NCBI GenBank assembly: GCA_030626475.1
Contig: DAOUOW010000001.1
Span: 108 to 64,107 of the forward strand
From: Chloroflexota bacterium
Lineage (GTDB): Bacteria; Chloroflexota; Dehalococcoidia; E44-bin15
Reading direction: 5' to 3'
DNA: 64,000 nucleotides
Shown: positions 7,934-50,891 of the stretch, one piece after another
Layout of the letters: every line of letters starts with the position of its first letter
Position numbering within the stretch: the stretch's first letter is position 1
The notes under the pieces: generated by a model
The model's input: the letters and a program-made list of their open reading frames with translations, nothing else
What the model was told of the DNA's origin: nothing
The model's database searches: none
Program-made: the position numbers and the translations under genes

Positions 7934-8036
7934 CTTTTCGCCCTGTTGCCACTAAGGCTATCATACCATATTCTGAATGATGGCTCTAGCCTGATGTTGA
8001 GCCATGCGCTAGAATAGAGGCGGAAAAGGAGGGCTG

Positions 8037-9165: not shown

Positions 9166-9239
9166 AGTCACATTCAGTTGAAATGGGAAATCCCGGTTAA
9201 CGTATGAAAAACAATCGAAAAGGCAAAGGAGAAAAGAAG

Positions 9240-20039: not shown

Positions 20040-20041
20040 CG

Positions 20042-20833: not shown

Positions 20834-20851
20834 CATATTGAGGAAGGACTG

Positions 20852-22786: not shown

Positions 22787-22808
22787 AAAATAATAGGAGA
22801 GAAGGCTT

Positions 22809-24293: not shown

Positions 24294-24348
24294 CAAGGTG
24301 TCTTATGCAGGAAAACGATTTATGGGCTAATTATCGAGAGGTCTTGAA

Positions 24349-29642: not shown

Positions 29643-30899
29643 ATGTTGAAAATATGCCTTCTTTGCTATCGGGGAAACAAGTACTGCGGCGGTCAGGGGA
29701 TTTATCTCTATTACCTCTCCCGTGAATTGCAGCGCATGGGGCATGAGGTGGATGTAATAGTGGGACCTCCGTACCCCGATATTGCCGAGGGCATCAGGAT
29801 GCACAGGTTGGAAAGCCTGAACCTCTACGATCGGCTAATTGAAGGGAAGAAGGGTTTTCTCCCCCAGGACAACCCGCTGCATATTCTCACTCCCCTCAAC
29901 CTCTTCGAACTCGGGGCGACCTCCCTAGGTATGTTCCCGGAGATATTTACCTTCAGCATCAGAGCCTATCTCAGGATTCGCCAGCTTCTTCCCCATCATC
30001 GCTTCGATATTGTCCATGATAACCAGTGCCTGGCCTATGGTTTACTCCAGATAAGAGCCTCGGGGCTGCCTGTGGTGGCCACCATCCATCATCCACTGCC
30101 TATCGATACTAAGGCTGACCTGGCTCAGACATCAAGTATCCGAAAGAAGATCAGGCGCACCCTTTTCTATCCCCCGTTTATGCAGGGCATCGTCGCCAGA
30201 AGGCTGGATGGAGTGATTACCGATTCTGAGAGTTCGGCGCAGGAGATAAGGAGGATATTCAAGGTGCCCCCGGGCAAAATGAGAACCGTTTATCTCGGCG
30301 TGGATACCAACGTCTTCCGCAAACTGGACGGGCATAACAAGGAGTCCAATAGCCTGATAATGGTAGGCAGAACCGAGGATCGAAAGAAGGGCATCATCTA
30401 CTTGCTTCAGGCCCTCAGACTGCTCAAGGGGGATGACCTCCGTCCCAAAGTGACCATTGTCGATCAGGTGAACTCAGGAAGCCTGGCCCTGGATTTGGTC
30501 AGTAAGTATGCACTACAGGATATGGTTAGCTTTACCGGGAGGTTAACCACAGAGGAGTTGGTGAGCCACTATTCAGCAGCGGAGGTTGCTATAACCCCCT
30601 CTGTTTATGAGGGTTTTGGGCTTCCTGTTGCCGAGGCTATGGCCTGCGAGGTCCCTGTGATCGCTACCCGTGCCGGGGCTCTTCCCGAAGTGGTGGGAGA
30701 AGGGGAGACCGGGATTTTGGTGCCTCCCCAGGACCCCCATGCCCTGGCCAGCGCTATCAAGCGCCTCCTTGCGGATGAATCTATGCGCCGCAGGATGGGC
30801 AGTGAGGGCAGAAGACGGGTACAAAAGCACTTCTCATGGCCAGAGGCGGCAAGTAAAATGCTTCAGGTATATGAGGAGGTTTTATCTCAGCGTCGCTAG
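29643..30899 (+). CDS. Glycosyltransferase family 4, paralog B
   Basis: N-terminus nearly identical in pattern to paralog A (MLKICLLCYRGNKYCGGQGIYLYYLSRELQRMGHEVDV). EGFGLPVAEAMACEVPVIAT motif. Confidence 0.75.
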   Translation: MLKICLLCYRGNKYCGGQGIYLYYLSRELQRMGHEVDVIVGPPYPDIAEGIRMHRLESLNLYDRLIEGKKGFLPQDNPLHILTPLNLFELGATSLGMFPEIFTFSIRAYLRIRQLLPHHRFDIVHDNQCLAYGLLQIRASGLPVVATIHHPLPIDTKADLAQTSSIRKKIRRTLFYPPFMQGIVARRLDGVITDSESSAQEIRRIFKVPPGKMRTVYLGVDTNVFRKLDGHNKESNSLIMVGRTEDRKKGIIYLLQALRLLKGDDLRPKVTIVDQVNSGSLALDLVSKYALQDMVSFTGRLTTEELVSHYSAAEVAITPSVYEGFGLPVAEAMACEVPVIATRAGALPEVVGEGETGILVPPQDPHALASAIKRLLADESMRRRMGSEGRRRVQKHFSWPEAASKMLQVYEEVLSQRR

Positions 30900-31663
30900 C
30901 TCTTTGGGGTGCACTTGATAACGATGACATCGCTCAGCGAGGGAAATCTGCGAGCAATCCTATCCCCGAAGGCTAATATGATTGCTGAAATCCTCCGCGG
31001 CAAGAGGGCCAGTATCTTCCCCCAATAAGGAGCCATCCACAGCAAAGAGATGCCGAGGGTCTTTTTGACCTCAAAATGGCGACTGACCACGCTTTTGAGC
31101 AACTGGTAATCGAATTTGTAGGTATGGTCCGGAGGGGGCTGCCAAGGCTGCCTCTCATTCTTCTCCCGAAAGGGAAGCCTCTTGCCTATAGGATACCAAA
31201 GCCTCCCCAGGCGGCAGCTGAGGCTTTCGAAATTGGCGACAGCGATTATCGCCTCCCCATCGGGCTTGAGAACATGATGCATCTCCTCCACCGTCTTTTC
31301 CGGATCGAGGAAGTGGTCCAGGGAACCCTTGCACATGACTTTATCCAGGGAGTGCTTTCTGAACGGGAGTGCCTCACCAATCCCGCGTACCAGGGAAACA
31401 TCGCTTTCGCCTACATGCCCTTTAGCCGCGGTGAGCATTTTCCTTGAGGGATCAAGTCCTATCGCCTTTCCCCCCTTTATCGCCAAATGGATGATGCCCA
31501 TCGCCCGGCCACAGCCGATATCGAGAACAATCTCCCCCGGGGTGAGAGAAACCATGCCCAGGGTTTTCTCATCCACCTTGGAAAAGACGAAAGCGGTATC
31601 AGGATAAACCTTTTCTGGAACTACCCCGGCGTCATCCCACTCCAGGTCAACCCCTCTCTCCAT
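30896..31663 (-). CDS. Class I SAM-dependent methyltransferase
   Basis: LDIGCGRAMG motif I, 255 aa. Convergent with GT4 paralog B, overlapping it by 4 nt. Confidence 0.7.
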   Translation of the reverse strand: MERGVDLEWDDAGVVPEKVYPDTAFVFSKVDEKTLGMVSLTPGEIVLDIGCGRAMGIIHLAIKGGKAIGLDPSRKMLTAAKGHVGESDVSLVRGIGEALPFRKHSLDKVMCKGSLDHFLDPEKTVEEMHHVLKPDGEAIIAVANFESLSCRLGRLWYPIGKRLPFREKNERQPWQPPPDHTYKFDYQLLKSVVSRHFEVKKTLGISLLWMAPYWGKILALLPRRISAIILAFGDRIARRFPSLSDVIVIKCTPKS

Positions 31664-31674
31664 TGGCCCTCCGC

Positions 31675-32223
31675 TTATCTGCCGTACTTTGCTTTCCCTT
31701 CCTGGTAGAGGTCGCCTCCGTGGGCGTCATTGACCACAGTAGCGGGGAAATTCTCCACCTCAAGGCGCAGGACAGCCTCGGCGCCCAACTCCTCATAGGC
31801 CACCGTATCCGACTTCTTGATCGCCCTGGCGATAAGGGCACCGGCACCGCCGATGGCGGCGAAATAGACCGCCTTGTGCTTTTTGATCGCCTCCTTCACC
31901 TCCTGGGAGCGAGACCCCTTACCTATCATCCCCTTAAGACCCTCGGTCAGCAAACGCGGTGAATAGGCATCCATGCGCCCACTGGTGGTGGGGCCAGCGG
32001 CACCGATAACCTGCCCCGGCTTGGCCGGTGAGGGGCCCATGAAATATATTGTCTGCCCCCGGACATCAAATGGCAAATCCTGTCCCTGATCCAGGGCCTC
32101 GACCATTCTCTTATGGGCTGCATCACGGCCAACATACATGACACCAGTAAGCAAAACGTTGTCCCCGGCTTTGAGGTCTCTTATGGCCTCGTCTGTCAAA
32201 GGTAGTGTAACTTTCTTCTGCAT
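31675..32223 (-). CDS. fumB: Class I fumarate hydratase / Fe-S hydro-lyase beta subunit
   Basis: 182 aa matching the tartrate/fumarate hydro-lyase beta family (GPTTSGRMD, AIGGAGA). Confidence 0.8.
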   Translation of the reverse strand: MQKKVTLPLTDEAIRDLKAGDNVLLTGVMYVGRDAAHKRMVEALDQGQDLPFDVRGQTIYFMGPSPAKPGQVIGAAGPTTSGRMDAYSPRLLTEGLKGMIGKGSRSQEVKEAIKKHKAVYFAAIGGAGALIARAIKKSDTVAYEELGAEAVLRLEVENFPATVVNDAHGGDLYQEGKAKYGR

Positions 32224-32319
32224 TGCTATCCTCCTTAGACCGAAGCGAGAACAATCGAAAGACTACCCCCGCGCCAGTTCGAATATCCTCTAGCTCCCTC
32301 CCAAATTTAGTGAAACCTA

Positions 32320-33162
32320 TTAGCGTTTCGCTGTAAATTCTGGCACTGGCAGCTTGGGTTTTTCCTCTGCTGGAGGCGGAGCTACAAGAGACGGCTCTTT
32401 CTTTTTGCGCAATCTCAAAGTTTGTGCCAGCACTGTCCTCTTGAGCAATTGAATAGCCAAGGCGGGGTCCACCCCCTTAGGGCAAGCCTCAGAGCAAGCT
32501 CCGGCAAGGTGGCAAAGCCAAACGCCATGCCCAGAGTCAACTATAGCAGTCCTTTCCCTTACCCCCTCATCTCGACTATCTGCGCAATACCGATAAGCCT
32601 GAGCCAATGACTGAGGTCCTAAGAAGAGCACATCTGTAGCTGAAGTAGGGCAAGCCGCCAGGCATATCCCACATTTCACGCAATAGCTAAACTGCAAGTA
32701 TTCCTCTAGCTCTTGAGGCGACTGGGTATATTCAGCAGTAGGCTCCTCCATCTCCTCACTATCCGAGCGCAGGATGTAAGGCTTTATTGCCTTGTGGCTC
32801 TCAAATAGTGGGATGAGATCAGGGATGAGGTCTTTTATGATGCCATAATTAGGCAGGGACTTGATTTCTACTACATCTTTCCCCAGCTCCTCCACCGGCG
32901 TGTGGCACGCGAGCTTGGGCAAGCCATTAATCAGCATGCCACAGGAGCCACAAATACCCATCCGGCACGAGGTGCGAAAGGCGAGGGTGTTATCTATCTT
33001 TTCCTTGATGTAGTTAAGACCATCAAGCACTGTCATACCTTTGGTGAAGGGGATGACAAACTCCTGCAAATGAGACTTCTCATCACGAGTGGGCTCATAC
33101 CTTTGAACCCTGAACGTCAGTTCTTCCGCAGTTAAACTTTTCTCTTTCTCTGTCATAACCAT
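32320..33162 (-). CDS. sdhB: Succinate dehydrogenase / fumarate reductase iron-sulfur subunit
   Basis: CRMGICGSCGML [2Fe-2S] motif, plus CVKCGICLAACP and CHLAGACSEACP Fe-S motifs. Confidence 0.85.
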   Translation of the reverse strand: MVMTEKEKSLTAEELTFRVQRYEPTRDEKSHLQEFVIPFTKGMTVLDGLNYIKEKIDNTLAFRTSCRMGICGSCGMLINGLPKLACHTPVEELGKDVVEIKSLPNYGIIKDLIPDLIPLFESHKAIKPYILRSDSEEMEEPTAEYTQSPQELEEYLQFSYCVKCGICLAACPTSATDVLFLGPQSLAQAYRYCADSRDEGVRERTAIVDSGHGVWLCHLAGACSEACPKGVDPALAIQLLKRTVLAQTLRLRKKKEPSLVAPPPAEEKPKLPVPEFTAKR

Positions 33163-33167
33163 CTCTC

Positions 33168-33530
33168 CTAGGAATAATAGGCATTAAGCGCAATAAAAGT
33201 TCCATATCCAAAGACGGCAATCCCGATTCCCATCATAATGTAATTAAGCGAACGGGCGATAACAGGCGGCCAAGGTAGCTCCATAAGAACAACCCTCAAA
33301 CCATAAAGCGCGTGGTAAATAGCCACCGCCAAAAGGATAATGTAGAAGCTGGCCCAGCCGGCGCTGGTTGCCCTGTCCATTACACTGCCCCATGATGTTG
33401 GCTCCTCTATATGTACGCCAAAGACGCCAGCGAAATCATCCAACCGTAGCGCTGTGACATGTGCCGCGATAAGGAAAAACACAGCAACCCCGGTAATCAG
33501 CTGTAGAACACGAAAGTAAGATTGACGCAT
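33168..33530 (-). CDS. Succinate dehydrogenase / fumarate reductase membrane anchor subunit (small)
   Basis: 120-aa, 3-TM protein located between sdhC and sdhB. Confidence 0.5.
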   Translation of the reverse strand: MRQSYFRVLQLITGVAVFFLIAAHVTALRLDDFAGVFGVHIEEPTSWGSVMDRATSAGWASFYIILLAVAIYHALYGLRVVLMELPWPPVIARSLNYIMMGIGIAVFGYGTFIALNAYYS

Positions 33531-33539
33531 TGCACACCT

Positions 33540-33983
33540 CTATACTACAAAGTCAATTAGGATAAGGAGCAGAAGAATCGCTCCCAGCGCACCCATTGCC
33601 AATACGATGGGGCGCCTTCGTTGCAGAGCATGACTATAAGGATATATCGGTGGTTTGGGAGCACCTAAGGTGTAACCCAGTTGCTGCAGAATGAGCCTTA
33701 GCCCGTTAAGGGCATGGATGAGAAAGGCGGCAATAACAAGGTACTCCCCGACTGCGAATACCGGGTTCTCAAACAGGCTCATGGTGTCTTCCCAAAGCCC
33801 CTCTCCGCTAATGCGCATACCATTGGCTGTGAGGTGGAGGATGCCGTATAAAATTATGCCGAGCCCGGTCACCCTCTGGAGAGTATAGAGATAGCGCTCC
33901 ACATTATATCTGCCAGCCCATACCCAACCCCAGATACCCAGGTAATTCTTCAACGGTTTCTTCTTCACTTCTGCCACGTTCAT
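33540..33983 (-). CDS. Succinate dehydrogenase / fumarate reductase cytochrome b subunit
   Basis: 147-aa TM protein with His residues, immediately downstream of sdhA. Confidence 0.55.
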   Translation of the reverse strand: MNVAEVKKKPLKNYLGIWGWVWAGRYNVERYLYTLQRVTGLGIILYGILHLTANGMRISGEGLWEDTMSLFENPVFAVGEYLVIAAFLIHALNGLRLILQQLGYTLGAPKPPIYPYSHALQRRRPIVLAMGALGAILLLLILIDFVV

Positions 33984-33986
33984 AGG

Positions 33987-35702
33987 TCAATACTTCCTTT
34001 CTACCGGCTGCCACATCGTAATGGTCATCGGAATATAGTCAAGCCGTGGTCCTTCTGGGGTATAGTAAGCCAAGGTATGTTTGCCCCAATTAACATCGTC
34101 TCTCTGGGGGCAGTCCCTCCGGGAATGAGACCCCCGAGATTCAGTGCGTGCTATTCCTCCGACTACGATCGCTTCTGCTATATCGAGGAGGTTAGCCACT
34201 TCCAAAATATTGAGAAGGTTAGTATTGTACACCCTGCTTTCGTCCTTGACCCGCACCCTCTTCATTCGCTCTCTTAATTCCCTTATTTTCTCTAGCGCCT
34301 TCTCCATCTCCGGACCGGTGCGGAAAACCCCCACCTGACGATCCATGGCGCTTTGCAGTTCGCTTCTGATGACGTAAACGTCTTCCTCGCCGCTCTGATG
34401 GCGGTACTGGTCAAATATGAGCGCCTCCTCCTGACGCACCCTTTCTTGAGAAACCGAAACCAGAGCTTTTTGTTCTCGGGCAAATTTAGCTGCTTTTTCA
34501 CCGGTGATCTTCCCCCAGAGCAAGCACTCAGCAGTGGAATTGGAGCCGAGACGATTTGCCCCATGTAACGAAATACAAGCAGCCTCACCTGAAGCCCAGA
34601 TTCCTTGTATTGGGGTTGCGCCATCGATATCGACATGGATACCACCCATGAAATAATGAGCCGCTGGTCGAATGGGGATAGGCTCATCAATAGGGTCGAT
34701 GAAAGCCAACTTTATCGCCACCTCCCTTATTAAGGGCAGGCGCTCATTGATCTTCGCCGCACCGAGATGGCGCAGGTCTATGTGTAAGTAGTCCAGGCCG
34801 TCAGGTCCTGGGAATCCCCTTCCCTCCTCGATCTCAGTTATCTCGGAGCGAGACACGATATCCCTGGGAGCTGTTTCCTTTCTCTCAGGGGCATACTTTT
34901 CCATAAATCTTTCGCCCTTGTTATTTCTCAGATAGCCTCCTTCACCCCTCGCTGCTTCGGTAATTAGGATGCCGGAGGGTATCAGCCCAGTAGGATGAAA
35001 CTGGACGAACTCCATGTCCTTGATTGGGAACCCAGCCCTGTAGGCCATGGCCAGGCCATCCCCGGTAGCGGTGAGGGAATAAGTGGTAAAACCAAACATA
35101 CGACAGGCACCACCGGTAGCGATAACCAAAGCCTTCGCCCTGATCACGAAAAACTCGCCACTTGTCAAATCCCACACCGTTACCCCTTGAAAGGAATTGT
35201 CGCCCACCAAGATTGAGGTCACATAGCACTCATCATAACGGGTGACAGAGGCATACTTTTGGAGGATATCATAGAGGGTCTGCATCTCAAAGAAGCCGGT
35301 TTTATCGGCGGCGAAAACAGCTCGGTCGAAGGTATGACCACCAAAGGCTCGTTGGTCGATGCGACCATCAGGACGGCGCGACCAGGGGATACCCCAGTGC
35401 TCTAGCTGCAGGATCTCTTGCGGCATTTCTTCGACGAAGCGCTGCACAACATCCTGGTCAGCCAGGAAGTCGCTTCCCCTCACTGTGTCCCAGGCATGCA
35501 GCTCGAAGCTATCGCCCTCTTCGGGGCGCATCATTGCCGCTGTACCGCCTTCGGCACAAACCGAGTGGGAACGCATTAGCTGAACTTTGGAAACGATGGC
35601 AATATCCAGCTCCCCTTTGCTCACCCGGGCTGCCTCAACCGCCGCTCGCAGTCCTGCTATCCCAGAGCCTAAAACTAGCAGATCGTGACTAACACCATTC
35701 AT
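33987..35702 (-). CDS. sdhA: Succinate dehydrogenase / fumarate reductase flavoprotein subunit
   Basis: GSGIAGLRAA FAD-binding motif and RSHSVCAEGG covalent-FAD histidine motif. 571 aa. RBS AAGGGGG. Confidence 0.9.
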   Translation of the reverse strand: MNGVSHDLLVLGSGIAGLRAAVEAARVSKGELDIAIVSKVQLMRSHSVCAEGGTAAMMRPEEGDSFELHAWDTVRGSDFLADQDVVQRFVEEMPQEILQLEHWGIPWSRRPDGRIDQRAFGGHTFDRAVFAADKTGFFEMQTLYDILQKYASVTRYDECYVTSILVGDNSFQGVTVWDLTSGEFFVIRAKALVIATGGACRMFGFTTYSLTATGDGLAMAYRAGFPIKDMEFVQFHPTGLIPSGILITEAARGEGGYLRNNKGERFMEKYAPERKETAPRDIVSRSEITEIEEGRGFPGPDGLDYLHIDLRHLGAAKINERLPLIREVAIKLAFIDPIDEPIPIRPAAHYFMGGIHVDIDGATPIQGIWASGEAACISLHGANRLGSNSTAECLLWGKITGEKAAKFAREQKALVSVSQERVRQEEALIFDQYRHQSGEEDVYVIRSELQSAMDRQVGVFRTGPEMEKALEKIRELRERMKRVRVKDESRVYNTNLLNILEVANLLDIAEAIVVGGIARTESRGSHSRRDCPQRDDVNWGKHTLAYYTPEGPRLDYIPMTITMWQPVERKY

Positions 35703-35975
35703 TCTACCCCCTTATCGACATCAGCAAAATGGCTCCGAATGAAATATGAGACTACACTGAGCCCTGGAGCCATCTCGCTGAAAGCTCGACGGTCATAATT
35801 TTGCCTTTTTCTTCACACCCTGTGATTTTGGCGGGGGGAGTTCCATGGCAAAGGACATAAGATACCTTGGAGAGCATTGACCACGCTAATAGTACAAGGA
35901 CATGATCTCCCCCCATCTCCTTAACCTTTGCCACAAATTCGCTTTGCAGCCTGTTACTGGAAATGGTGAGCGCCT

Positions 35976-36821
35976 CTAAAGCACCGCCTCCTTGTGCCGA
36001 GCAGCGTGGCATTGCAGGTTTACCGCCACGGGAAGGCTGGCTATGTGCGCAGGGAAGACCTCAGCATGCACCGCTAGGGCAGTAATTCTTCCCCCGAAGC
36101 CTTGCGGTCCAACGCCGGTATTATTAACCCGTTCCAGGATTTCCCGCTCTAGCTCCGCCACCTCAGGGTCAGGATTAGGCTCTCCCACCCGGCGCAGCAG
36201 CACCTTCTTGGCCAGGATCATTGCCTTGTCTGCCGTGCCTCCAATCCCCACCCCGACAATCACCGGAGGACAAGGATTGCTTCCCGCCTCGTCAACCGCC
36301 CTCACCACGAAGTCGACGACCCCCTGGCGACCTTCCGCCGGCTTGAGCATGGCAAGGCGGCTCATATTCTCACTGCCGCCTCCTTTGGGCATCACCGTGA
36401 TGTGGAGCTTATCGCCGCTCACCACTTCGGTGTGAATAACAGCAGGGGTGTTATCCCTGGTGTTCACCCTTGCCGAGAAGGGCTGGCGCGCTATCGACTT
36501 TCGCAGATAACCCTCGTTGTAGCCCTGGCGTACCCCCTCCTCCACCGCAGCGTAAAGGTCGCCGCCGACGATGTGAACATCCTGGCCCAGCTCGAGATAG
36601 ACCACAGCGAAGCCACAGTCCTGACAAATAGGAATGCGCTCCTTAGCCGCAATATCCGCATTTTCCAGAATCTGCTCTAAGACCTGGCGTCCTAAAGGGG
36701 ACTCCTCCCTCTCTATCCCCTGCTTCAGGGAATCCAAGACATCATCCCCAAGAAAGAAGTTTGCCTCCTGAAACAGGCGAGCCACGGTTTCGGTCACTTT
36801 CTTGGCATCAATCTCTCTCAT
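35976..36821 (-). CDS. fumA: Class I fumarate hydratase / Fe-S hydro-lyase alpha subunit
   Basis: CQDCGFAVVYLELG cluster-ligand region, 281 aa. Confidence 0.85.
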   Translation of the reverse strand: MREIDAKKVTETVARLFQEANFFLGDDVLDSLKQGIEREESPLGRQVLEQILENADIAAKERIPICQDCGFAVVYLELGQDVHIVGGDLYAAVEEGVRQGYNEGYLRKSIARQPFSARVNTRDNTPAVIHTEVVSGDKLHITVMPKGGGSENMSRLAMLKPAEGRQGVVDFVVRAVDEAGSNPCPPVIVGVGIGGTADKAMILAKKVLLRRVGEPNPDPEVAELEREILERVNNTGVGPQGFGGRITALAVHAEVFPAHIASLPVAVNLQCHAARHKEAVL

Positions 36822-36836
36822 AGCCCTTACCCTTAA

Positions 36837-37763
36837 TCAGAGCTTCATAATGTTGACCAGCTCCCTCACCGCCTCAGCTGACTTCTTCAGCGCAGCATCC
36901 TCCTCAGAGTCCAGCTTTATCTCGATGATTTGCTCGACCCCATTCGCCCCCACCTTTATCGGGACGCTCAAAAATACCCCCTTGATGCCATATTCGCCAT
37001 CGAGATAAACGGCGCAAGGGAGTATCCTCTTCTTATCGAGGAGGATTGAATCCACCATCTGGGCCACCGCCGCCGATGGGGCATAGTAAGCACTGCCAGT
37101 CTTGAGCAGGCTAACGATCTCGCCGCCGCCCTTCACCGTGCGCGTGACGATACGCTCGATGGTCTCTGGGGGCAGAATATTGGTTATCGGCACGCCGCCA
37201 ACAGTGGAGAGTCTGGGGATGGGCACCATGCTATCGCCATGTCCCCCCAGGACACAGGCAAAGACATCCTCCACCGAGACATCGAGTTCCGCAGCGAGGA
37301 AGGTTCTAAATCTGGTGGTATCGAGGATGCCTGACATGCCTATAACACGGTTCTTGGGAAACTTACTCACATGAAGCGCGAGTTGAGCCATAGCATCCAG
37401 GGGGTTGGTAACCACGATAATGATGCAATTAGGGGAATACTTCACCACGCTCTCGGTGACCCCTTTAATGATCTCCATATTGGTGAACAGCAGGTCGTCC
37501 CGGCTCATCCCTGGCTTTCTCGGCACACCAGAGGTGATGACAGCGATGTCGGAATCCGCCGTCTCCTCATAGCTGTTGCTGCCGATGAGGCGGGCATCGG
37601 AAGAAACCACAGGGCCGCTCTCGAGCATGTCCAGGGCCTTCCCCTGGGGTAGCCCCTCGATAATGTCCACCAGCACCACATCGGCATGTCCCCGCTCAGC
37701 GAGCCTTTGGACGCAACTAGCGCCTACATTCCCGGCACCAACAACTGTTACTTTTTTGCGCAT
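36837..37763 (-). CDS. mdh: Malate dehydrogenase (LDH-like family)
   Basis: [13 protein letters not shown]-binding motif and an Arg-containing substrate loop ([13 protein letters not shown]). 308 aa. Confidence 0.9.
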
Positions 37764-37767
37764 CGTC

Positions 37768-38850
37768 CTACTCCTCCATTTTTTCTATTACTGCGTCAGC
37801 TACCTCGGAAGTGCTCACCGCTGTGGGGTCGTTGCGATCGGGCTTCATGTCGTAGGTAACCGACTTTCCTTCGACGATAACCTTTGCTACCGCCCTTTCC
37901 ACCCGATCGGCGACTTCTTTCTCCCCCAGATAGCGCAGCATCATCACCCCTGAGAGCATCATGGCCATAGGGTTTACCTTGTTTTGCCCCGTATATTTTG
38001 GGGCGCTGCCGTGCGTGGGTTCAAATACAGCGATATCGTCCCCTATGTTGGCACCAGGGGCAAGGCCGAGGCCACCGATGAGACCAGCACAAAGCTCGGA
38101 GACGATGTCCCCGTAGAGATTGGGCAGAACGAGGACGTCGTGTCGCTGGGGGAAGCGCGCCAGTTGCATGCAAAGGCTATCGACGATTATGGTTTCAAAA
38201 TCTATATCGGGGTATTCCCGGGCTACCTTGGAGGCAGTGGAGAGGAACAGGCCATCAGTGTATTTCAGGATGTTTGCTTTGTGAACCGCGGTCACCCTTT
38301 TCCTGTTATTGGCACGAGCGTAGTCGAAAGCATACTTCACAATCCTTCTCGTGGCGCTTTCGGAGATGGCCTTGATGCTAAAGTTCGAATCGTCCCTGAT
38401 CCCATCAGCGCCGGACTCGATGATGAAACGAGCAAGCATCTCCCCTTCCACGGTCTCCCTTTCGAACTCGATCCCAAGATAAAGGTCCTCCGTGTTCTCC
38501 CTAATGACCACAATATCCACATCTGGGTGCAAAGTGGGGGCCCCGGGGTAGCTCTTACAAGGGCGGAGGCAAACATAAAGGTCCAGCTCTTTGCGCACCG
38601 CTACGTTGACGCTTCTAAAGCCAGAGCCTATGGGGGTAGTGATGGGGCCTTTAAGGGCTACCTTGTGTCTCCTGATCGAGTCCAGCACATAACCGGGGAG
38701 AGGAGTGCCATATGTGTCCTGGGCACGGTCGCCGGCGTAGGCCATATCCCAGTTGAACTTGACCCCCGTGGCTTCCAGCACCCTCACCGCAGCCTCGGTA
38801 ACCTCAGGACCGATGCCATCGCCAGGGATCAGGGTAACATCATAGGCCAA
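37768..38850 (-). CDS. icd: Isocitrate dehydrogenase (isocitrate/isopropylmalate dehydrogenase family)
   Basis: GDGIGPEV motif. [31 protein letters not shown] closely resembles the IDH phospho-serine loop region rather than LeuB. 360 aa. Confidence 0.65.
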
Positions 38851-38864
38851 GTCGCCGCTCCTTT

Positions 38865-39362
38865 CTAAGAGATGTCGAAGTCTTTGTGCTTCTTAATATA
38901 CGGGATAAGCCCGCCTTCATCAATAATGCTGAGCATTACCTCGGGGAATTTGCCTGAGGTAAGCTCTGACCCGGTGGTAACATTCTTAACCTTACCTCCC
39001 TTGAGATCAACCTCAAGCTCATCCCCATCCCTTATTTTATCACTATCACAAATCAAAACGGGAAGCCCCACATTTATTGCGTTTCTAAAGAAGATTCGTG
39101 CCACCGATTTTGCCACGATGGCGCTCACCCCGGCCATCTTTATGATGACCGCAGCATGCTCTCGGCTAGAGCCTTGACCAAAGTTCCTGCCGGCAACAAT
39201 GAAGTCTCCGGGCTTCACCCGGGAAACAAAATCAGGGTTAACATCCTCGAGAAGATGCTTCGCCAGCTCAGGCAAGTTGCTCCTGAGGTGAAACCACCTC
39301 CCGGGCGCGATGTCATCTGTGGAGATATTATCCCCGAACTTAAACGCTCTTCCCCTAAGCAT
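38865..39362 (-). CDS. leuD: Archaeal-type 3-isopropylmalate dehydratase / homoaconitase small subunit (LeuD-like)
   Basis: 165 aa, FGDNISTDDI motif. Confidence 0.75.
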   Translation of the reverse strand: MLRGRAFKFGDNISTDDIAPGRWFHLRSNLPELAKHLLEDVNPDFVSRVKPGDFIVAGRNFGQGSSREHAAVIIKMAGVSAIVAKSVARIFFRNAINVGLPVLICDSDKIRDGDELEVDLKGGKVKNVTTGSELTSGKFPEVMLSIIDEGGLIPYIKKHKDFDIS

Positions 39363-40616
39363 CTACAATAGCTCCCTGGGGTCAGTGATTTCGCCAGCGA
39401 TGGCAGTGGCAGCAGCGGTAGCTGGACTTCCCAGATAGATAAAACTCTGGGGATTGCCCATGCGCCCCCTAAAATTGCGGTTGGCGGTAGAAAGGCAGCG
39501 CTCCCCATCGCCTAGGACTCCCTGGTGGATTCCCACGCACGGGCCACAACCAGGAGGCAAAACTGTTGCCCCTGCCTCGAGGAAGTCCGTGATATAACCA
39601 GCATTCATCGCCGCCATAAGCACCTTTCTGGAGGCGGGGGCAATTATCAGCCTGGTGGTAGGATGGCGTTTTCGTCCTTTTAGCATTTTGGCGGCAATCG
39701 CCATATCCTCCAACCGACCATTAGTGCAGGTGCCGATAAATACCTGCTCGATTTTTTCGCCCTTTAGGTCTTTGGCTAAGGCGACGTTATCCACAGCATG
39801 GGGCATGGAAACCGCAGGCTCCAGAGAAGTGACATCGATTTCGATAGTTTGTTCATACTCGGCATCGGGATCAGGTTGAAAAGAGCGAAAAAGATCGCCC
39901 CGACCTCGAAATTCCAGATAGCGGCGGGTGATGTCATCGGAGGAGAAGATCCCTGCTTTGGCCCCTGCCTCCACCGTCATATTAGCTAGAGTGAAACGCG
40001 CAGACATATTCATATTATCAATGGTTGGACCACAAAACTCCAGTGCCTTGTAGGTAGCGCCATCGGCACCGATGATCCCGATAAGGTGAAGACTGAGGTC
40101 CTTAGCATACACCCCTTCTTTAAAGCCGCCGCTCACCACTACCTTGAAGCTCTCCGGCACCCTGAGCCAGGTCTTCCCCAGGGCGATGGCAATGGCGACA
40201 TCGGTAGAGCCCATCCCGGTGGCGAAGGCACTCAGCGCCCCAGCGGTGACGGTATGAGAGTCAGCGCCAATTATTACCTCGCCAGGGTTGGCATAGGATT
40301 CCACAACGATCTGGTGACAGATACCCTCCCCGATGTCACAAAGCTGGGCACCATTCTTCACCGCGAAGTCGCGGATAAGGACATGGTCGTTAGCTAGCTC
40401 TGGGGTTGGGCTCGGCGAAGCATGGTCGATAAAAAACACCACCCGTTTGGGGTTGGCCACCTGCTCAAGCCCGCTCGCTGCAAGCTGCCTCAACGCCAGA
40501 GGCGCAGTGCCATCTTGAAGGAAAGCCAGATCGACCTTGGCAATAACTATGTCTCCGGCGCGGGCATCACTCCCCGAATTCTGGCTCAGTATCTTCTCAG
40601 CGAGGGTTTTCCCCAT
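39363..40616 (-). CDS. leuC: 3-isopropylmalate dehydratase / aconitase-family large subunit (LeuC-like, archaeal type)
   Basis: 417 aa with aconitase-family Fe-S ligand regions (GTCTNGR, PGCGPCVG). The gene pair is directly abutting leuD. Confidence 0.8.
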   Translation of the reverse strand: MGKTLAEKILSQNSGSDARAGDIVIAKVDLAFLQDGTAPLALRQLAASGLEQVANPKRVVFFIDHASPSPTPELANDHVLIRDFAVKNGAQLCDIGEGICHQIVVESYANPGEVIIGADSHTVTAGALSAFATGMGSTDVAIAIALGKTWLRVPESFKVVVSGGFKEGVYAKDLSLHLIGIIGADGATYKALEFCGPTIDNMNMSARFTLANMTVEAGAKAGIFSSDDITRRYLEFRGRGDLFRSFQPDPDAEYEQTIEIDVTSLEPAVSMPHAVDNVALAKDLKGEKIEQVFIGTCTNGRLEDMAIAAKMLKGRKRHPTTRLIIAPASRKVLMAAMNAGYITDFLEAGATVLPPGCGPCVGIHQGVLGDGERCLSTANRNFRGRMGNPQSFIYLGSPATAAATAIAGEITDPRELL

Positions 40617-40623
40617 GGCAGCG

Positions 40624-42576
40624 CTAACCGATTACCGCTAAGACATCGTCTTTCGCCACCCGATCCCCTGATTTGAACCTCAGTTCCTTGATTGTTCCAT
40701 CGATAGGGGCAGGGATGGTGGTCTCCATCTTCATCGCCTCTAATATAACCACTGTATCGCCAGCTTTAACCTGTTGTCCCACCTCCGCCTCGTATCTGAT
40801 GATCATCCCAGGCATGGGGGCGAGGACGGCTCCCTCTACGGCGACTGCTGGTGCCGCCTTTGGCGGGGCTGCGGGAGCGGAAGCGGTGGCAGGTCGGTTG
40901 GCAGGCATTGCAGAAATGCGCGTCCCTCCTGTCGGCTCTACCTCCACCTGGTAGTACTCATCGCCGACAAAGACGTTGTAAACTCGGAGCCCTGGCCCCT
41001 TGGCCGGAACCGGTTTCTCCACCTTCTCCACCAGCTTGCCCGCTTTCGCCTTGGCAATGAGCTCATCCTCCCGCTTTATCTCCTCCATGGTCTTGGGGGC
41101 ACGGGGAGGCTTCCAATCCGATGGGATCTCCTTGTCCAATCCATACTTGTATCTCAGGAAGCGCATCCCGGTGGTAGGATAGAGGGCGTAGGTTAACACA
41201 TCCTTGTCATCTTTGGCGATGTCTTTGGCAGCCTCTCTCGCTTTTTCCAACTCGGGCTCAACCATATCTGCAGCACGACAGGTGATCGGCTCCTCGCCAC
41301 GCTCATAGCCTTTAAGAACCATCTTCTGGATCTTAGGGTCAATGGGAACTGGTGGCTTGCCATATAGGCCCCAACAGTAGTCCTTCACCTCTTTCGAGAT
41401 AAACTTGTAAGGCCCGAGGAGGGTGTTCTGAACCGCTTGAACCCCCACAATCTGGCTTGTAGGAGTAACCAGAGGAGGAGAACCAAGCTCCGCTCGAGTT
41501 TTGGCCGTCATTGCCCGGCATTCATCCAACCTATCAAGTGCATCAGCCTCCCTTAGCTGTGACACCAGGTTGGTGGTCATCCCACCAGGGATCTGGTGGA
41601 CGAGGACGCCAGCGTCGATAACCGACATCCGCGAGGTGTCCAGGAAATCCCTGTACTTGGGGGCTATCTGCTCAAGCATCTGACCACAGTTGAATAGCTG
41701 CTCGATATCAAGCCCGGTATCCCTATCAGTCCCATAGAGAGCCACCACTAAAGGCTCGATCGCCGGCTGTGAAGACCTTAAGGCAAAGGGGGATAGAGCG
41801 GTATCGATGATATCAACCCCGGCCTCGATTGCTTTTAGCAGAGACATGGAACCCTGCCCGCTAGTGTAGTGGGTATGGAGCTCGATAGGGACATCTAATG
41901 CCTCCTTTAGAGCTTTGATTAGCTCATAGGCATCATATGGGGATATCAGCCCTGCCTGGTCCTTAATGCAGATGCTATCAGCACCCAAATCCCGCAGGGT
42001 GAGGGCCTTCTTGACATAATAATCCATGCTATACACCGGTCCACCCATCCTGGGCTGTGTGAGGGAATAACATATAGCCCCTTGGTAATGCTTTCCCGTT
42101 TTCTTGATTGCCTTAGCGGCGCGTTCGTGATTGCGCTCATCATTCACGGCATCAAAGACGCGGAAGATATCAATCCCGGCATCGGCAGCATTCTCAACGA
42201 AGCAATCGACCAAGTCATCAGGGTGGTTTCGATAGGCAACCAGGTTCTGCCCTCTGAGAAGCATCATAAGCGGGGTGTCGGGCATGAGTTTTTTTAATAT
42301 CCGAGGCCTATCCCAAGGATCCTCACCCAAAAAGCGGTGTGGGACATCAAAGGTTGCCCCTCCCCAAACCTCCATGGAATAGAAGCCACACTTATTCATC
42401 TCCGCAGCCATCCATTCCATATCCTCGGTTCGCATCCTGGTAGCGAGACAGGACTGGTGTCCATCCCGAAAGGTAGTATCACAGACCTTAACCGGATTTG
42501 CTGCTTTTGGCCTTTCCTTTACCTTTTCAGTGGTCAACTCGCTTGCCTTATATGGGCCCTCTCCCATGCCAGTCAT
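40624..42576 (-). CDS. Carboxyltransferase 5S subunit with C-terminal biotinyl domain (pyruvate carboxylase subunit B / oxaloacetate decarboxylase alpha / transcarboxylase 5S-like)
   Basis: TTFRDGHQS TIM-barrel carboxyltransferase N-terminus and a C-terminal biotinyl domain (LEAMKMETTI). 650 aa. Confidence 0.85.
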   Translation of the reverse strand: MTGMGEGPYKASELTTEKVKERPKAANPVKVCDTTFRDGHQSCLATRMRTEDMEWMAAEMNKCGFYSMEVWGGATFDVPHRFLGEDPWDRPRILKKLMPDTPLMMLLRGQNLVAYRNHPDDLVDCFVENAADAGIDIFRVFDAVNDERNHERAAKAIKKTGKHYQGAICYSLTQPRMGGPVYSMDYYVKKALTLRDLGADSICIKDQAGLISPYDAYELIKALKEALDVPIELHTHYTSGQGSMSLLKAIEAGVDIIDTALSPFALRSSQPAIEPLVVALYGTDRDTGLDIEQLFNCGQMLEQIAPKYRDFLDTSRMSVIDAGVLVHQIPGGMTTNLVSQLREADALDRLDECRAMTAKTRAELGSPPLVTPTSQIVGVQAVQNTLLGPYKFISKEVKDYCWGLYGKPPVPIDPKIQKMVLKGYERGEEPITCRAADMVEPELEKAREAAKDIAKDDKDVLTYALYPTTGMRFLRYKYGLDKEIPSDWKPPRAPKTMEEIKREDELIAKAKAGKLVEKVEKPVPAKGPGLRVYNVFVGDEYYQVEVEPTGGTRISAMPANRPATASAPAAPPKAAPAVAVEGAVLAPMPGMIIRYEAEVGQQVKAGDTVVILEAMKMETTIPAPIDGTIKELRFKSGDRVAKDDVLAVIG

Positions 42577-42653
42577 TTGCTTTCACCTCCCAAAAACTTT
42601 TAATCTAAAGACGAACTGCTGCGCTTACTTTCTATCGCCTCCTTCTTGAATGG

Positions 42654-42848
42654 CTAGCGAGCTTGCGCCCTTCCTATTCTCATTTGCCATAACACCCGCA
42701 TACTCATCATTTCTTCTAGCCCGGCATATTTCCAAAAACTGAGCTCATAGCGAGGCCTGGGTGGCACTGCTAGAGCTTGAGCTTCCTCTTCCATAAGGTG
42801 GTCTATGGCCACCATGATCGCAGCCATGACCCCTGCTTTATCGCTCAC
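42654..42848 (-). CDS. Small subunit, possibly an acyl-CoA carboxylase/decarboxylase epsilon-like protein
   Basis: 64-aa ORF sitting between the 12S and 5S genes on the same strand. Its helical N-terminus loosely resembles ACC-epsilon/MmdE small subunits. Confidence 0.25.
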   Translation of the reverse strand: MSDKAGVMAAIMVAIDHLMEEEAQALAVPPRPRYELSFWKYAGLEEMMSMRVLWQMRIGRAQAR

Positions 42849-42857
42849 TTTTCACCT

Positions 42858-44408
42858 CTAAAGTGGTATGTTCCCATGCTTCTTAGGCGGATTGGTATCC
42901 CGCTTGTTTTGTAGCATCTCTAGTGCTTTAATCAACCTGGGGCGTGTCTCCCTGGGGTCGATGACATCATCAATATAGCCCAAGGAAGCAGCCACATAGG
43001 GATTGGCAAATTTCTCCACATATTCAGCCACAAGCTGGCTGCGGGTCTCATCTGGCTTATCCGACTTGGTGATGGTTTCCCTGTGGATGATGTTCACCGC
43101 ACCCTCAGGGCCCATGACCGCGATCTCAGCCGTGGGCCAGGCATAATTGATGTCGGCTCGCAGGTGCTTACTGCTCATCGCAATATAGGCACCGCCATAG
43201 GCTTTCCTGGTGATCACGGTTACTTTGGGGACCGTGGCTTCCGAATAGGCGTAGATCATCTTGGCGCCATTTGAGATGATTCCTCCGTATTCTTGATCCA
43301 CCCCGGGCATATATCCCGGGACATCGGTAAAGGTGATTATGGGGATATTGAAGGCGTCGAGGAAGCGAACAAAGCGGGCTGCTTTGTTTGAGGCGTCAAT
43401 ATCGATAACCCCTGCCGACATCAAGGGCTGCTGGGCAACAATGCCCACCGAGCGCCCATCGAGCCTGGCAAAGCCGGTGATGATGTTGGGGGCATAATAC
43501 TCGTGGACCTCCAGGAATTCGCCGTTATCCATCAACCGCCCGATGATCTCCTTCATATCGTAGGCTTTGGTGGGGTCATCAGGAACGATGTAAAGAAGTT
43601 CCTCATCCATCCTTTCAGGGTAATCGCTGGGCTCCACAAGAGGGGTCTCCTGCATATTGTTCTGCGGCACGTAGCTTAGGAGCAAGCGCACCTTATCCAG
43701 GCAGTCCTGATCATTCTCGGCGACGAAGTGGCAAACACCGCTGTTAGAGGCATGAACCATCGCTCCGCCCAGTTGCTCATGGGTCACCTCCTCGCCAGTC
43801 ACCGCCTTAATCACATCAGGGCCGGTAATATACATCTGCCCCGTCCCTTTCACCATAAAGACGAAGTCAGTTAGTGCCGGGGAGTAGACGGCGCCTCCGG
43901 CACAGGGACCCATGATCACTGAGATCTGGGGGATAACCCCCGAGGACAGGGTATTGCGGAGGAAGATGTCGCCATATCCAGCGAGGCTGAGCACCCCCTC
44001 CTGGATCCTGGCCCCTCCGGAATCATTGAGCCCGATGAACGGGGCCCCATTTTTCACCGCCAGGTCCATGACCTTGCAAATCTTCTGCGCCACCACCTCC
44101 GATAGCGATCCGCCAAAGACGGTGAAATCCTGGGCGAAGAGGTAAACCGTCCTGCCATTGACCGTGCCGTACCCGGTGACTACAGCATCGCCCGGGAATT
44201 TCCTGTCGGCGAGACCGAACTCCGTGGCGCGATGGGTGACAAAAGCATCCATTTCCTCGAAGCTGCCTTCATCGAGGAAATAAGAGATGCGCTCTCTAGC
44301 GGTAAGCTTGCCCCGCTCATGCTGAGCTTCGATGCGCTTGGCTCCACCCCCCAGCTTTGACTCCTCCCTCCGTTTGCCCAGTGCTTCTATCCTATCTTCA
44401 ATTGCCAT
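42858..44408 (-). CDS. Acyl-CoA carboxyltransferase, 12S type (propionyl-CoA carboxylase beta / methylmalonyl-CoA decarboxylase alpha)
   Basis: 516 aa from [10 protein letters not shown], preceded by AAAGGCGGGG. The crotonase-fold carboxyltransferase halves are conserved. The 20-aa ORF-track extension is unlikely to be real. Confidence 0.85.
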
Positions 44409-45428: not shown

Positions 45429-45546
45429 TTCTTGCCTCCGCGATGCTCAGGCTAGTATGCTTTTTTCTGCTGCTGGTTGTCAAGCGCATATGATACCTCG
45501 AGCAAGTATTCTCAAAGGCATAGCCATGTGCTAGAATCTGAGGGCG

Positions 45547-49928: not shown

Positions 49929-50891
49929 GTGAAAAGGACGAGGGTCTGCGATCTGCTGGGCATCGACTATCCCATCATCCAAGGGGGGATGGCATGGGTT
50001 GCCAACGCTGAACTCGCTGCCGCCGTTTCCAACGCCGGGGCGCTGGGGATACTCAGTCCCAATGCTGGCATGAAGCTTGAAGCGGATGTGGTAGAGCATC
50101 TCAGGAGCCAAATAACAAAGACGAAAGGACTCACCGATAAGCCTTTTGGGGTGAACCTGCCGGTGCTGATTCCCGAGATCAAGGAGCTGATCGATGTACT
50201 GGTGAGCGAGGGGGTAAAGGTGGTCACCACCTCAGCGGGCAGCCCTGCCCCTTATACCGGCCTGCTGAAAGAGGGTGGGGTCACGGTTCTCCATGTAGCA
50301 GCCTCGGTGAGGCATGCCCTGAGCGCTGAGAGACAGGGTGTGGATGCCGTTATCGCCGAGGGGTATGAAGCTGGGGGGCACAACGGCTTCGATGAGCTGC
50401 CGACCATGGTCCTGGTCCCCCAGGTGGTGGACGCAGTGAGCGTTCCTGTGATAGCGGCGGGGGGCATCGCCGATGCCCGAGGCGTTGTCGCCGCCCTGGC
50501 TCTGGGTGCTGAGGGGGTTCAGATAGGCACTCGCTTTGTCGCCACCCATGAATGCATCGCCCATCAGAACTTCAAGGATGGCGTTGTGAACGCCAGCGAC
50601 ACCGGCACCATCATCACAGTGCGAAAGCTCGGTCCCGCCAGGGTATTAAAAGGCGAGTTTGCCTCCAAACTACAGGAGATGGAGGGCAGGGGGGCAACGC
50701 CTGAGGAGTTTCTGGCCTTCATAGGCATTGCCCGGGCGCGAACCGGGGAACTGGACGGCAACTTGATCGATGGCGAGGCATATTGCGGTGCCATAGCCGG
50801 GATGATCAAGGAGATCGTGAGTGCCGGCGATGTGGTGCGTGACATCGTGGAAGGCTATGCACAGGTGGTGGCAGGGCTAAAGGCGGATTAG
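49929..50891 (+). CDS. Nitronate monooxygenase family / enoyl-ACP reductase FabK-like FMN oxidoreductase
   Basis: DYPIIQGGMAWV motif and a TIM-barrel FMN pattern. 320 aa. Confidence 0.75.
   Translation: MKRTRVCDLLGIDYPIIQGGMAWVANAELAAAVSNAGALGILSPNAGMKLEADVVEHLRSQITKTKGLTDKPFGVNLPVLIPEIKELIDVLVSEGVKVVTTSAGSPAPYTGLLKEGGVTVLHVAASVRHALSAERQGVDAVIAEGYEAGGHNGFDELPTMVLVPQVVDAVSVPVIAAGGIADARGVVAALALGAEGVQIGTRFVATHECIAHQNFKDGVVNASDTGTIITVRKLGPARVLKGEFASKLQEMEGRGATPEEFLAFIGIARARTGELDGNLIDGEAYCGAIAGMIKEIVSAGDVVRDIVEGYAQVVAGLKAD

Follow-up and report, generated by a model that had tools for sequence, protein, structure and literature searches.

A 64-kb stretch of DNA from a Dehalococcoidia bacterium (Chloroflexota; contig DAOUOW010000001.1, positions 108 to 64,107; hereafter, the window) carries on its minus strand a block of 16 genes, in which two carboxyltransferases and a biotin carrier are encoded together with enzymes of the tricarboxylic acid (TCA) cycle. 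We read this block as a central-carbon (TCA) supercluster of an uncultured subsurface bacterium that is headed by a transcarboxylase, a joint reading in which confidence and doubt are equally balanced. The first three core genes code for a 12S-type acyl-CoA carboxyltransferase, a protein of 64 aa, and a 5S-type pyruvate/oxaloacetate carboxyltransferase with a biotin carboxyl carrier protein (BCCP) domain fused to its C-terminus, and their products would most likely form a soluble, ATP-independent, biotin-dependent complex of the transcarboxylase type. The transcarboxylase model was ranked first because a pair of carboxyltransferases is encoded alongside a single carrier and a small, linker-like protein, with no carboxylase nearby. 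The window has no biotin carboxylase domain, and none was found in the examined flanks of about 17 related loci.

The scan of the window took in all open reading frames (ORFs) of at least 150 aa, and the related loci were compared together with their flanks, several of them lying on short contigs that end early. The order proposed by the first-pass annotation, from the 12S gene to the fumarase beta subunit, was borne out gene by gene by the ORF listing and profile searches, and the stretch that it had delimited begins at the ATG of the 12S gene and ends at the stop codon of fumB. Two more genes on the same strand, a CitE-like lyase gene upstream and an S-adenosylmethionine (SAM)-dependent methyltransferase gene downstream, add one gene to each end of the block. 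The gene order is not a product of chance, since the same order or modular variants of it recur in about 17 independent related loci.

The Biotin-Dependent Proteins at the Head of the Cluster

The 12S-type protein is a PccB/MmdA-family carboxyltransferase with a double crotonase fold, as expected for the 12S subunit of a transcarboxylase. It scores 858 bits against the mmdA model TIGR01117, under the cut-off of 998.8, and its best match in the PDB is 1vrg of T. maritima (728 bits), with the 12S subunit of Propionibacterium freudenreichii subsp. shermanii (1on3; hereafter, P. shermanii) at 612 bits. The residue at the position of PccB D422 is Ile.

The 5S-type protein is a TIM-barrel pyruvate/oxaloacetate carboxyltransferase, the fold of the transcarboxylase 5S subunit, and the biotinyl-Lys motif of the Biotin_lipoyl domain fused to it reads EAMKME. 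The protein reaches 692 bits against NF006761 (PycB; cut-off, 402), 652 bits against the oadA model (cut-off, 756), and 464 bits against the transcarboxylase 5S model NF008984 (cut-off, 827), and its matches in the PDB include 5ks8_C (460 bits), 2nx9, and 1rqb (407 bits). It aligns over its full length to the beta subunit of two-subunit pyruvate carboxylase, and it also aligns to OadA and transcarboxylase 5S; all three of these catalyze the same half-reaction. Scans of genome and metagenome contigs with the 5S protein gave only 2 and 8 relevant loci, respectively; since EAMKMETT is a universal pattern, most of what these scans returned was ordinary pyruvate carboxylase.

The gene for the 64-aa protein is real, as it is kept in register in the related loci. 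Six orthologues align, with the motif AAI.AAI..YLEEE...P.PRP...W...GR.E.MRMR.LWQRR, and 421 homologues were found at E <= 1e-3, the named ones all from Dehalococcoidia. The ORF of the window has no Pfam or NCBIfam match, a few homologues have a weak precomputed match to PF26062 ('PccX'), and one (P0140) matches the C-terminal end of OAD_gamma below threshold (E=0.068). The resemblance to the tail of OadG may be a lead at most. For the 5S protein, the small protein, and the beta subunit of the Na+-decarboxylase described below, every close homologue with a named source is from Dehalococcoidia. Proteins identical to those of the window are encoded on metagenomic contigs (ENA ERZ3612388, JGI 3300030655, the metagenome-assembled genome GCA_034410445.1, and a 78.8-kb contig labelled 'subsurface metagenome').

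Gene Content and Organization of the Cluster

Downstream of the biotin-dependent trio, the block encodes the whole route from oxaloacetate via malate and fumarate to succinate: malate dehydrogenase (MDH), both fumarase subunits and SdhACDB reach the curated model cut-offs, with the exception of the membrane anchor subunits (Table 1).

The LeuCD-type pair is closest to archaeal isopropylmalate/homoaconitate hydro-lyases. Alignment of the small subunit to 3vba (YLVY), 2pkp (YLRT), and 1v7l places its substrate loop at GRWFHLRS, with an Arg as in the homoaconitase loop YLRT, whereas YLVY of isopropylmalate isomerase is without it. The nearest solved relatives of the isocitrate dehydrogenase (ICDH) are isocitrate dehydrogenases (6lky, 364 bits; 2iv0, 314 bits), its isocitrate-binding RSxN motif reads RSVN, and it has the Lys-Tyr of the NADP type (APKYTG). 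In NAD-dependent enzymes, Asp is found where ICDH has Lys-Tyr, the residue roles being taken from work on the E. coli enzyme. In Dehalococcoides mccartyi, the ICDH (DET0450 orthologue group) was expressed and assayed, and found to be NADP-dependent (PMC4720418), while a separate leuA-leuC-leuD-leuB operon exists and an aconitase is annotated at the LeuCD-type position of the TCA operon (PMC4720418 and its supplement). Based on this operon with its assayed ICDH and separate leu genes, on the fused aconitases that occupy the same slot in related loci, and on the RSxN and Lys-Tyr motifs, the LeuCD-type pair is a probable aconitase of large and small subunit, and its neighbor is assigned as ICDH. 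A role of the LeuCD-type pair and a LeuB-like enzyme in leucine or citramalate metabolism was rejected on the grounds of the RSxN motif, the leu operon of D. mccartyi and the fused aconitases. The hydro-lyase and ICDH genes had also been thought to extend a propionate module; they belong instead to a class-typical TCA operon of the kind published for D. mccartyi.

The CitE-like protein scores 254 bits against the citE model TIGR01588 (cut-off, 443) and 177 bits against RipC/Ccl, and its PDB neighbors are 1sgj, CLYBL (5vxc) and malyl-CoA lyase (4l9y). Neither citD nor citF was found in the window, and the protein is not assigned as a citrate lyase beta subunit; its substrate would be of the citryl-, malyl- or citramalyl-CoA type. 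The methyltransferase at the other end of the block reaches no NCBIfam cut-off, with demethylmenaquinone methyltransferase models at 40-48 bits.

Intergenic spacing is 0-129 bp throughout the block, the sole exception being the 273-bp gap between fumA and sdhA. The same gap measures about 50 bp in two related loci, L087 and L088, and the longer one of the window may be an insertion or hold an internal promoter. An 86-aa ORF with no family match lies in this region (35752..36012). Promoter-like sites numbered 19, compared with 10.7 expected; the best of the region, upstream of the CitE-like gene, is a consensus match alone and faces the divergent folP. The scan for intrinsic terminators gave 12 sites versus 14.1 expected, i.e., not above chance, so the operon ends are set by gene spacing. 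Judged by that spacing, the genes from the CitE-like lyase to the methyltransferase probably make up one or two transcription units of about 14.5 kb.

Table 1. Positions in the window of the cluster genes, of two intergenic sites, and of the Na+-decarboxylase module. Where two bit scores are given, the second is the model cut-off.
Feature	Position	Strand	Remarks
Sigma-70-like promoter match	45454..45483	-	TTGACA-18-CATACT, 10/12; best of the region; just upstream of the CitE-like gene
CitE-like HpcH/HpaI-family CoA-ester lyase, 296 aa	44538..45428	-	PF03328 E=7e-53; 129 bp upstream of 12S
12S-type (PccB/MmdA family) acyl-CoA carboxyltransferase, 516 aa	42858..44408	-	PF01039 684 bits
64-aa small subunit (PccX/epsilon-like)	42654..42848	-	GTG start; position of mmcI
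5S-type pyruvate/oxaloacetate carboxyltransferase with C-terminal biotin carrier, 650 aa	40624..42576	-	PYC_OADA, HMGL-like, Biotin_lipoyl
LeuC/HacA-type hydro-lyase large subunit	39363..40616	-	NF001614 578 bits vs 385; PDB 4nqy, 4kp2
LeuD/HacB-type small subunit	38865..39362	-	TIGR02087 193 bits vs 109
Isocitrate dehydrogenase, 360 aa	37768..38850	-	PF00180 342 bits
NAD-dependent malate dehydrogenase (LDH-like type)	36837..37763	-	TIGR01763 460 bits vs 352
Class-I (Fe-S) fumarate hydratase alpha	35976..36821	-	PF05681 390 bits; NF004885 413 bits vs 276
fumA-sdhA gap, 273 bp	35703..35975		no convincing terminator found in the scan
SdhA/FrdA flavoprotein	33987..35702	-	NF004724 899 bits vs 826
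SdhC cytochrome b membrane anchor	33540..33983	-	PF01127; TIGR02970 E=3e-9, under cut-off
SdhD membrane anchor	33168..33530	-	weak PF01127; TIGR02970 E=8.5e-5, under cut-off
SdhB/FrdB iron-sulfur subunit	32320..33162	-	NF004616 280 bits vs 228
Class-I fumarate hydratase beta	31675..32223	-	PF05683 208 bits; NF005310 279 bits vs 238
Class-I SAM methyltransferase (UbiE/MenG-like at best)	30896..31663	-	11 bp after fumB
OadG/MmdD-like anchor, 97 aa	4979..5272	+	N-terminal transmembrane helix and ALIAAAAITRYL tail; 39% identical to the L096 equivalent
Free biotin carboxyl carrier protein, MmdC-like, 135 aa	5269..5676	+	ESMKIQ; PF00364 71 bits; MmdC model 97 bits, under cut-off
Na+-translocating decarboxylase beta subunit (carboxybiotin decarboxylase)	5680..6810	+	PF03977 E=2e-156; TIGR01109 479 bits vs 190.6

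Conserved Core and Variable Slots in Related Loci

Wherever a contig spans all three genes, the order 12S - small ORF - 5S/BCCP is kept. The trio is followed by MDH and/or split fumarase genes, usually after an optional insert of aconitase (with or without ICDH) or 2-oxoacid:ferredoxin oxidoreductase genes; the cluster of L104 is without MDH. Loci L005, L085, L086, and L095 have the bare core, 12S - small - 5S - MDH - FumA - FumB; in the others, three slots are filled differently, two of them inside the cluster and the third at its ends. The slot between 5S and MDH holds LeuC-LeuD-ICDH in the window, L087, and L088, and a fused aconitase of 656-669 aa in L006 and L100. In L103, it is filled by a two-subunit 2-oxoacid:ferredoxin oxidoreductase (2481..5145), a fused aconitase and an ICDH-like gene; a two-subunit oxidoreductase of the same kind also lies beside the cluster of L104 (7824..10390). 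Between fumA and fumB, five loci (the window, L087, L088, L093, and L094) have a classical SdhACDB, whereas L092 (14166..17966) and L104 (3015..6836) have an unrelated, non-classical fumarate reductase of four genes, Fer4/CCG/Fer4/flavoprotein (557 aa). The presence of two unrelated fumarate reductases in the same slot is good evidence of selection to co-express the route from oxaloacetate to succinate with the trio.

The ends of the block are less constant. The CitE-like gene adjoins the 12S gene in the window and L087 only. The methyltransferase gene directly follows fumB in the window, L088, L093, and L094, and lies further downstream in L087. In L088, L093, and L094 it is itself followed by a B12-radical-SAM gene, directly so in L088 and L093; a TIGR04190-family B12-binding radical SAM protein is also encoded in the window, next to the nuo cluster (12687..14420, minus strand).

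The 12S proteins form two clades, 57-59% identical to one another, with the window, L087, and L006 on one side and L005, L085, L088, L092, L093, and L095 on the other. The motif is GGAYIAM in one clade and GG[AS]YLAM in the other. The adjacent 5S genes are 65-79% identical to that of the window. The greater divergence of the 12S clades compared to the neighboring 5S suggests that the 12S gene was replaced in place.

In L006, which is labelled as Acidobacteriota, a 501-aa CoA-transferase of the AcetylCoA_hydro/transferase family is encoded 2.7 kb upstream of the 12S gene (1015..2520, minus strand); propionyl-CoA:succinate CoA-transferases are members of this family. In the gammaproteobacterial relatives, OadA adjoins OadB.

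A Na+-Translocating Decarboxylase Module without an Alpha Subunit

About 36 kb from the trio, the window encodes an OadG/MmdD-like anchor, a free BCCP and the beta subunit of a Na+-translocating decarboxylase (Table 1). No Pfam or NCBIfam match was obtained for the anchor, and no carboxyltransferase alpha gene lies beside the module at 4979..6810. The same alpha-less layout is found in L097 and L098, both of which have two adjacent family-III CoA-transferase genes near the module.

In L096, the synteny around this site is the same, and the beta subunit is 82% identical to that of the window. The genes there (5536..11920) encode, in addition to the anchor and the beta subunit, a methylmalonyl-CoA mutase, a dedicated carboxyltransferase, two carriers, and a crotonase. 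L096 is the only relative in which a mutase was found, beside a carboxyltransferase paralog 48% identical to the 12S protein of the window. The mutase next to the module indicates that the methylmalonyl-CoA pathway exists in the lineage. The layout of L096 also indicates that the beta module works with a PccB-type alpha subunit, and that methylmalonyl-CoA can be the substrate of a paralog other than the 12S protein of the TCA cluster. In the organism of the window, the alpha subunit would have to be supplied in trans; the 12S protein of the cluster is the sole visible candidate, but the subunit may also be a paralog encoded elsewhere.

Proposed Function and Alternative Explanations

In the mechanism that we favor, the 12S, small and 5S proteins would associate physically. 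The 5S domain would move CO2 between oxaloacetate and pyruvate via the biotin carrier on its own C-terminus, and a 12S hexamer would pass the same carboxyl group to or from an acyl-CoA, with propionyl-CoA/(S)-methylmalonyl-CoA as the likeliest pair and acetyl-CoA/malonyl-CoA as the alternative. The 64-aa protein would be an epsilon/PccX-like assembly subunit. Oxaloacetate would be interconverted with malate by MDH, with fumarate by the split Fe-S fumarase, and with succinate by the quinone-linked SdhACDB, which may act as fumarate reductase or succinate dehydrogenase, as the direction of flux is not readable from sequence. The LeuCD-type aconitase and the NADP-type ICDH would add an arm from citrate to 2-oxoglutarate. 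The alpha-less Na+ module could take carboxyl groups from the 12S protein in trans, and would then be an energy-conserving outlet for methylmalonyl-CoA. Taken as a whole, we give an even chance to a transcarboxylase-headed TCA/C4 cluster that exchanges carboxyl groups between pyruvate/oxaloacetate and an acyl-CoA; the acyl-CoA would most likely be propionyl-/methylmalonyl-CoA, and the Na+ module would be an outlet of optional use.

Several results weigh against this mechanism. The first-pass annotation had taken the 12S/5S pair next to mdh, fum and sdh genes for the signature of propionate metabolism; the transcarboxylase architecture and the parallel with the mmc cluster of Pelotomaculum speak for it, while the window contains neither methylmalonyl-CoA mutase or epimerase, nor succinyl-CoA synthetase or a propionate/succinate CoA-transferase, and none was found in those flanks of the related clusters that were examined. 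The mutase of L096 does not lie next to the TCA cluster and is paired with the other carboxyltransferase paralog. A terrestrial group of Dehalococcoidia has been reported to be without methylmalonyl-CoA mutase (PMC7506110), and the TCA operon of D. mccartyi is headed by a PccB-type gene all the same, so that this gene probably has another role there, e.g., in the supply of malonyl-CoA. The residue at PccB D422 was dropped as a discriminator of substrates because Ile is common to enzymes of differing specificity: it is shared by mutant PccB and the T. maritima and S. tokodaii enzymes, and one true propionyl-CoA carboxylase has Val. Profile-profile comparison of the 64-aa family with OadG sequences was not significant (probability, 11%). 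Finally, the 5S/BCCP protein is publicly annotated as 'pyruvate carboxylase subunit B', and 5ks8_C is its best solved relative. A propionate role of the block is thus plausible and partly supported, though unproven.

With regard to activation of succinate, the window contains a gene similar to the alpha part of ADP-forming acyl-CoA synthetases (10324..11868, minus strand; TIGR02717, 390 bits, under the cut-off), with no adjacent beta/ATP-grasp subunit and with a DUF169 gene next to it (9204..10025, plus strand). Its product could activate acetate, propionate or succinate, and is the sole candidate of the window for succinate activation.

The alternative that survives best, doubtful as we consider it, is an anabolic, split TCA operon served by ATP-dependent carboxylases, in which the 5S/BCCP protein is PycB, the 12S protein provides the carboxyltransferase part of an acetyl-/propionyl-CoA carboxylase, and both are charged by a biotin carboxylase (PycA/AccC) encoded at an unlinked site. 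Biosynthesis would then draw on the block for oxaloacetate, malate, fumarate, succinate, 2-oxoglutarate and malonyl-CoA, which is the role proposed for D. mccartyi, whose operon starts with a 'propionyl-CoA carboxylase' gene in a group reported to lack the mutase. The database name and best matches of the 5S/BCCP protein (NF006761 PycB and 5ks8_C) agree with it, Ile/Leu at the D422 position is compatible with acetyl-CoA acceptance, and an FabK-type enoyl-acyl carrier protein reductase encoded in the window (49929..50891, plus strand) implies that a source of malonyl-CoA is needed. However, a biotin carboxylase was found neither in the window nor in the related loci, and the PycB-like gene always adjoins the 12S gene and a small linker-like gene, which is the architecture of a transcarboxylase. 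Where pyruvate carboxylase consists of two subunits, the pycA and pycB genes usually lie side by side. Moreover, the repeated insertion of SdhACDB or of an alternative fumarate reductase exceeds the needs of an anabolic branch.

It is unlikely, and given the alpha-less module of the window still a live option, that the 12S and/or 5S proteins serve mainly as alpha subunits of Na+-translocating decarboxylases (12S as MmdA with the products of 4979..6810, 5S/BCCP as OadA). Succinate-to-propionate conversion or oxaloacetate decarboxylation would then be coupled to Na+ export with no recycling of the carboxyl group. An intact beta subunit that passes its cut-off is accompanied by its own BCCP and transmembrane anchor and by no alpha subunit, in a layout kept in L097 and L098. 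The score of the 12S protein on mmdA, the OadA architecture of the 5S/BCCP protein with its score on oadA, the OadA-OadB adjacency in gammaproteobacterial relatives, and the Na+-pumping methylmalonyl-CoA decarboxylase predicted in a Chloroflexi genome (Hug et al. 2013) point in the same direction. On the other hand, the module never adjoins the 12S/5S pair, a 5S protein with a fused BCCP needs no free BCCP, and the dedicated alpha paralog of L096 means that the partner in alpha-less genomes may be another paralog as well. Decarboxylation also overlaps, and is compatible, with the transcarboxylase mechanism.

One combination of the two would make the trio a dual-mode biotin hub: it would act as a soluble transcarboxylase, passing the carboxyl group of (methyl)malonyl-CoA to pyruvate, or its 12S component would dock in trans on the anchor-BCCP-beta module, with release of CO2 and Na+ pumping. 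The 64-aa protein and the anchor, which have an 'AAI.AAI..YL' helix in common, might be competing adaptors that choose between carboxyl recycling and ion-motive energy conservation. As an extension of this reading, the CitE-like lyase at the head of the block might supply a non-canonical citrate- or malate-forming step. We consider such a hub decidedly unlikely.

It is highly improbable that the TCA cycle runs reductively or reversibly to fix CO2 or to oxidize acetate, with cleavage or formation of citryl-CoA by the CitE-like protein and the biotin enzymes as an anaplerotic node only. In its favor, the CitE-like gene heads the block in the window and L087, 2-oxoacid:ferredoxin oxidoreductase genes lie in or beside the clusters of L103 and L104, and the block includes aconitase, ICDH, MDH, fumarase and a fumarate reductase. 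Against it, ATP-citrate lyase, citryl-CoA synthetase, succinyl-CoA synthetase and 2-oxoacid:ferredoxin oxidoreductase are absent from the window, most related clusters are without CitE, and the CitE-like protein stays far below its model cut-off (254 vs 443 bits). A 2-oxoglutarate carboxylase (CfiAB) was also considered and dropped, since it needs a biotin carboxylase subunit and not a 12S carboxyltransferase.

Non-dehalogenating Dehalococcoidia are among the most abundant bacteria of subsurface and marine sediments, with none of those lineages cultured, and their central carbon node has been deduced only from annotations such as 'pyruvate carboxylase subunit B' and 'propionyl-CoA carboxylase'. 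If an ATP-independent transcarboxylase is wired to fumarate reduction, these bacteria could, with very little expense of energy, ferment to succinate or propionate or oxidize odd-chain fatty acids and propionate, and models that charge one ATP per oxaloacetate would be wrong. If ATP-dependent carboxylases are at work, the finding amounts to an enlarged version of the known Dehalococcoides TCA operon.

Other Features of the Window

The nuo cluster (14897..25764) includes a 1003-aa ORF (17028..20039, plus strand), located between NuoB/C/D and NuoJ-N, in which NuoH (residues ~20-335), a GltD-like part (~412-945), and a NuoI-like part with 2x[4Fe-4S] (~883-966) are joined. The GltD-like part is of an NAD(P)-binding type, similar to the small subunit of glutamate synthase, and NuoE/F/G were not found in the window. 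The fusion may be an unusual built-in electron-input module for a complex I of the 11-subunit type. The window also encodes a dimeric-type glycyl-tRNA synthetase (54542..55942, minus strand) and a membrane H+/Na+-pyrophosphatase (56640..58685, minus strand). No match was obtained in tRNA and Rfam scans of the 64 kb, and the flank examined beyond its left end holds only FtsH, MoaE and DUF3786 genes.

Comparison with Known Systems

The closest published counterpart is the TCA operon of D. mccartyi (DET0450 region), which consists of genes for propionyl-CoA carboxylase, both aconitase subunits (large and small), ICDH, MDH, a hypothetical protein, FumA, FumB, and HIT (PMC4720418, Fig. S2). Both organisms belong to the same class, and the order PccB-type carboxyltransferase, LeuCD-type aconitase, ICDH, MDH, FumA, FumB is shared. 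Compared to that operon, for which the published legend gives no 5S gene and no Sdh, the block of the window adds the 64-aa subunit and the 5S/BCCP protein after the carboxyltransferase, SdhACDB between fumA and fumB, the CitE-like gene upstream and the methyltransferase downstream.

Pelotomaculum thermopropionicum and further Peptococcaceae have the mmc cluster (Kosaka 2006, summarized in PMC8892533), in which mmcH codes for a 12S subunit, mmcI for a small subunit called epsilon, mmcJ for a biotin carrier, mmcK for MDH, mmcL for a 5S subunit, and mmcB/C for a split fumarase. The small ORF after the 12S gene of the window is placed like mmcI, which lies between mmcH and mmcJ, and MDH, 5S and split fumarase genes are clustered in both. 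According to that summary, succinyl-CoA synthetase, mutase, MeaB, epimerase, pyruvate:ferredoxin oxidoreductase and a regulator are peculiar to mmc, which is without Sdh, whereas the window has Sdh, aconitase, ICDH and the CitE-like gene, and its carrier is fused to 5S.

The methylmalonyl-CoA:pyruvate transcarboxylase (EC 2.1.3.1) of P. shermanii (12S, 5S, and 1.3S subunits; 1on3, 1rqb) has both catalytic families and the carrier in common with the window, and likewise no adjacent biotin carboxylase. It differs in that its 1.3S carrier is free, while that of the window is fused to 5S, as in OadA and PycB, and an extra 64-aa subunit is present; the actinobacterial 5S model also gives the 5S protein a lower score than the models for PycB and OadA do. 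With MmdABCDE of Veillonella and OadGAB of Vibrio and Klebsiella, the window shares the beta subunit, free BCCP and anchor, its 12S protein being MmdA-like and its 5S/BCCP protein OadA-like. In contrast to these systems, the alpha candidates lie 36 kb away in the TCA cluster, and there is no alpha-beta operon. Among the Mmd subunits, MmdE is likewise small (~6 kDa). The resemblance to the two-subunit pyruvate carboxylase PycA/PycB of Methylobacillus flagellatus (5ks8) extends along the entire beta subunit (460 bits), but no PycA is encoded in the window or beside the related clusters, where the 12S gene holds the neighboring position.

Literature searches on transcarboxylase in Dehalococcoidia, the cluster in Chloroflexi, DET0447/DET0119/DET0120, and PccX yielded nothing useful, and no description of the enlarged arrangement or of the 64-aa family was found in the searchable literature. 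The kind of system is already known from the TCA operon of D. mccartyi, the mmc cluster and the transcarboxylase of P. shermanii, and what is new is that the TCA clusters of Dehalococcoidia have an invariant head, 12S - small - 5S/BCCP, together with the plug-in slots for aconitase and fumarate reductase and the alpha-less Na+ module.

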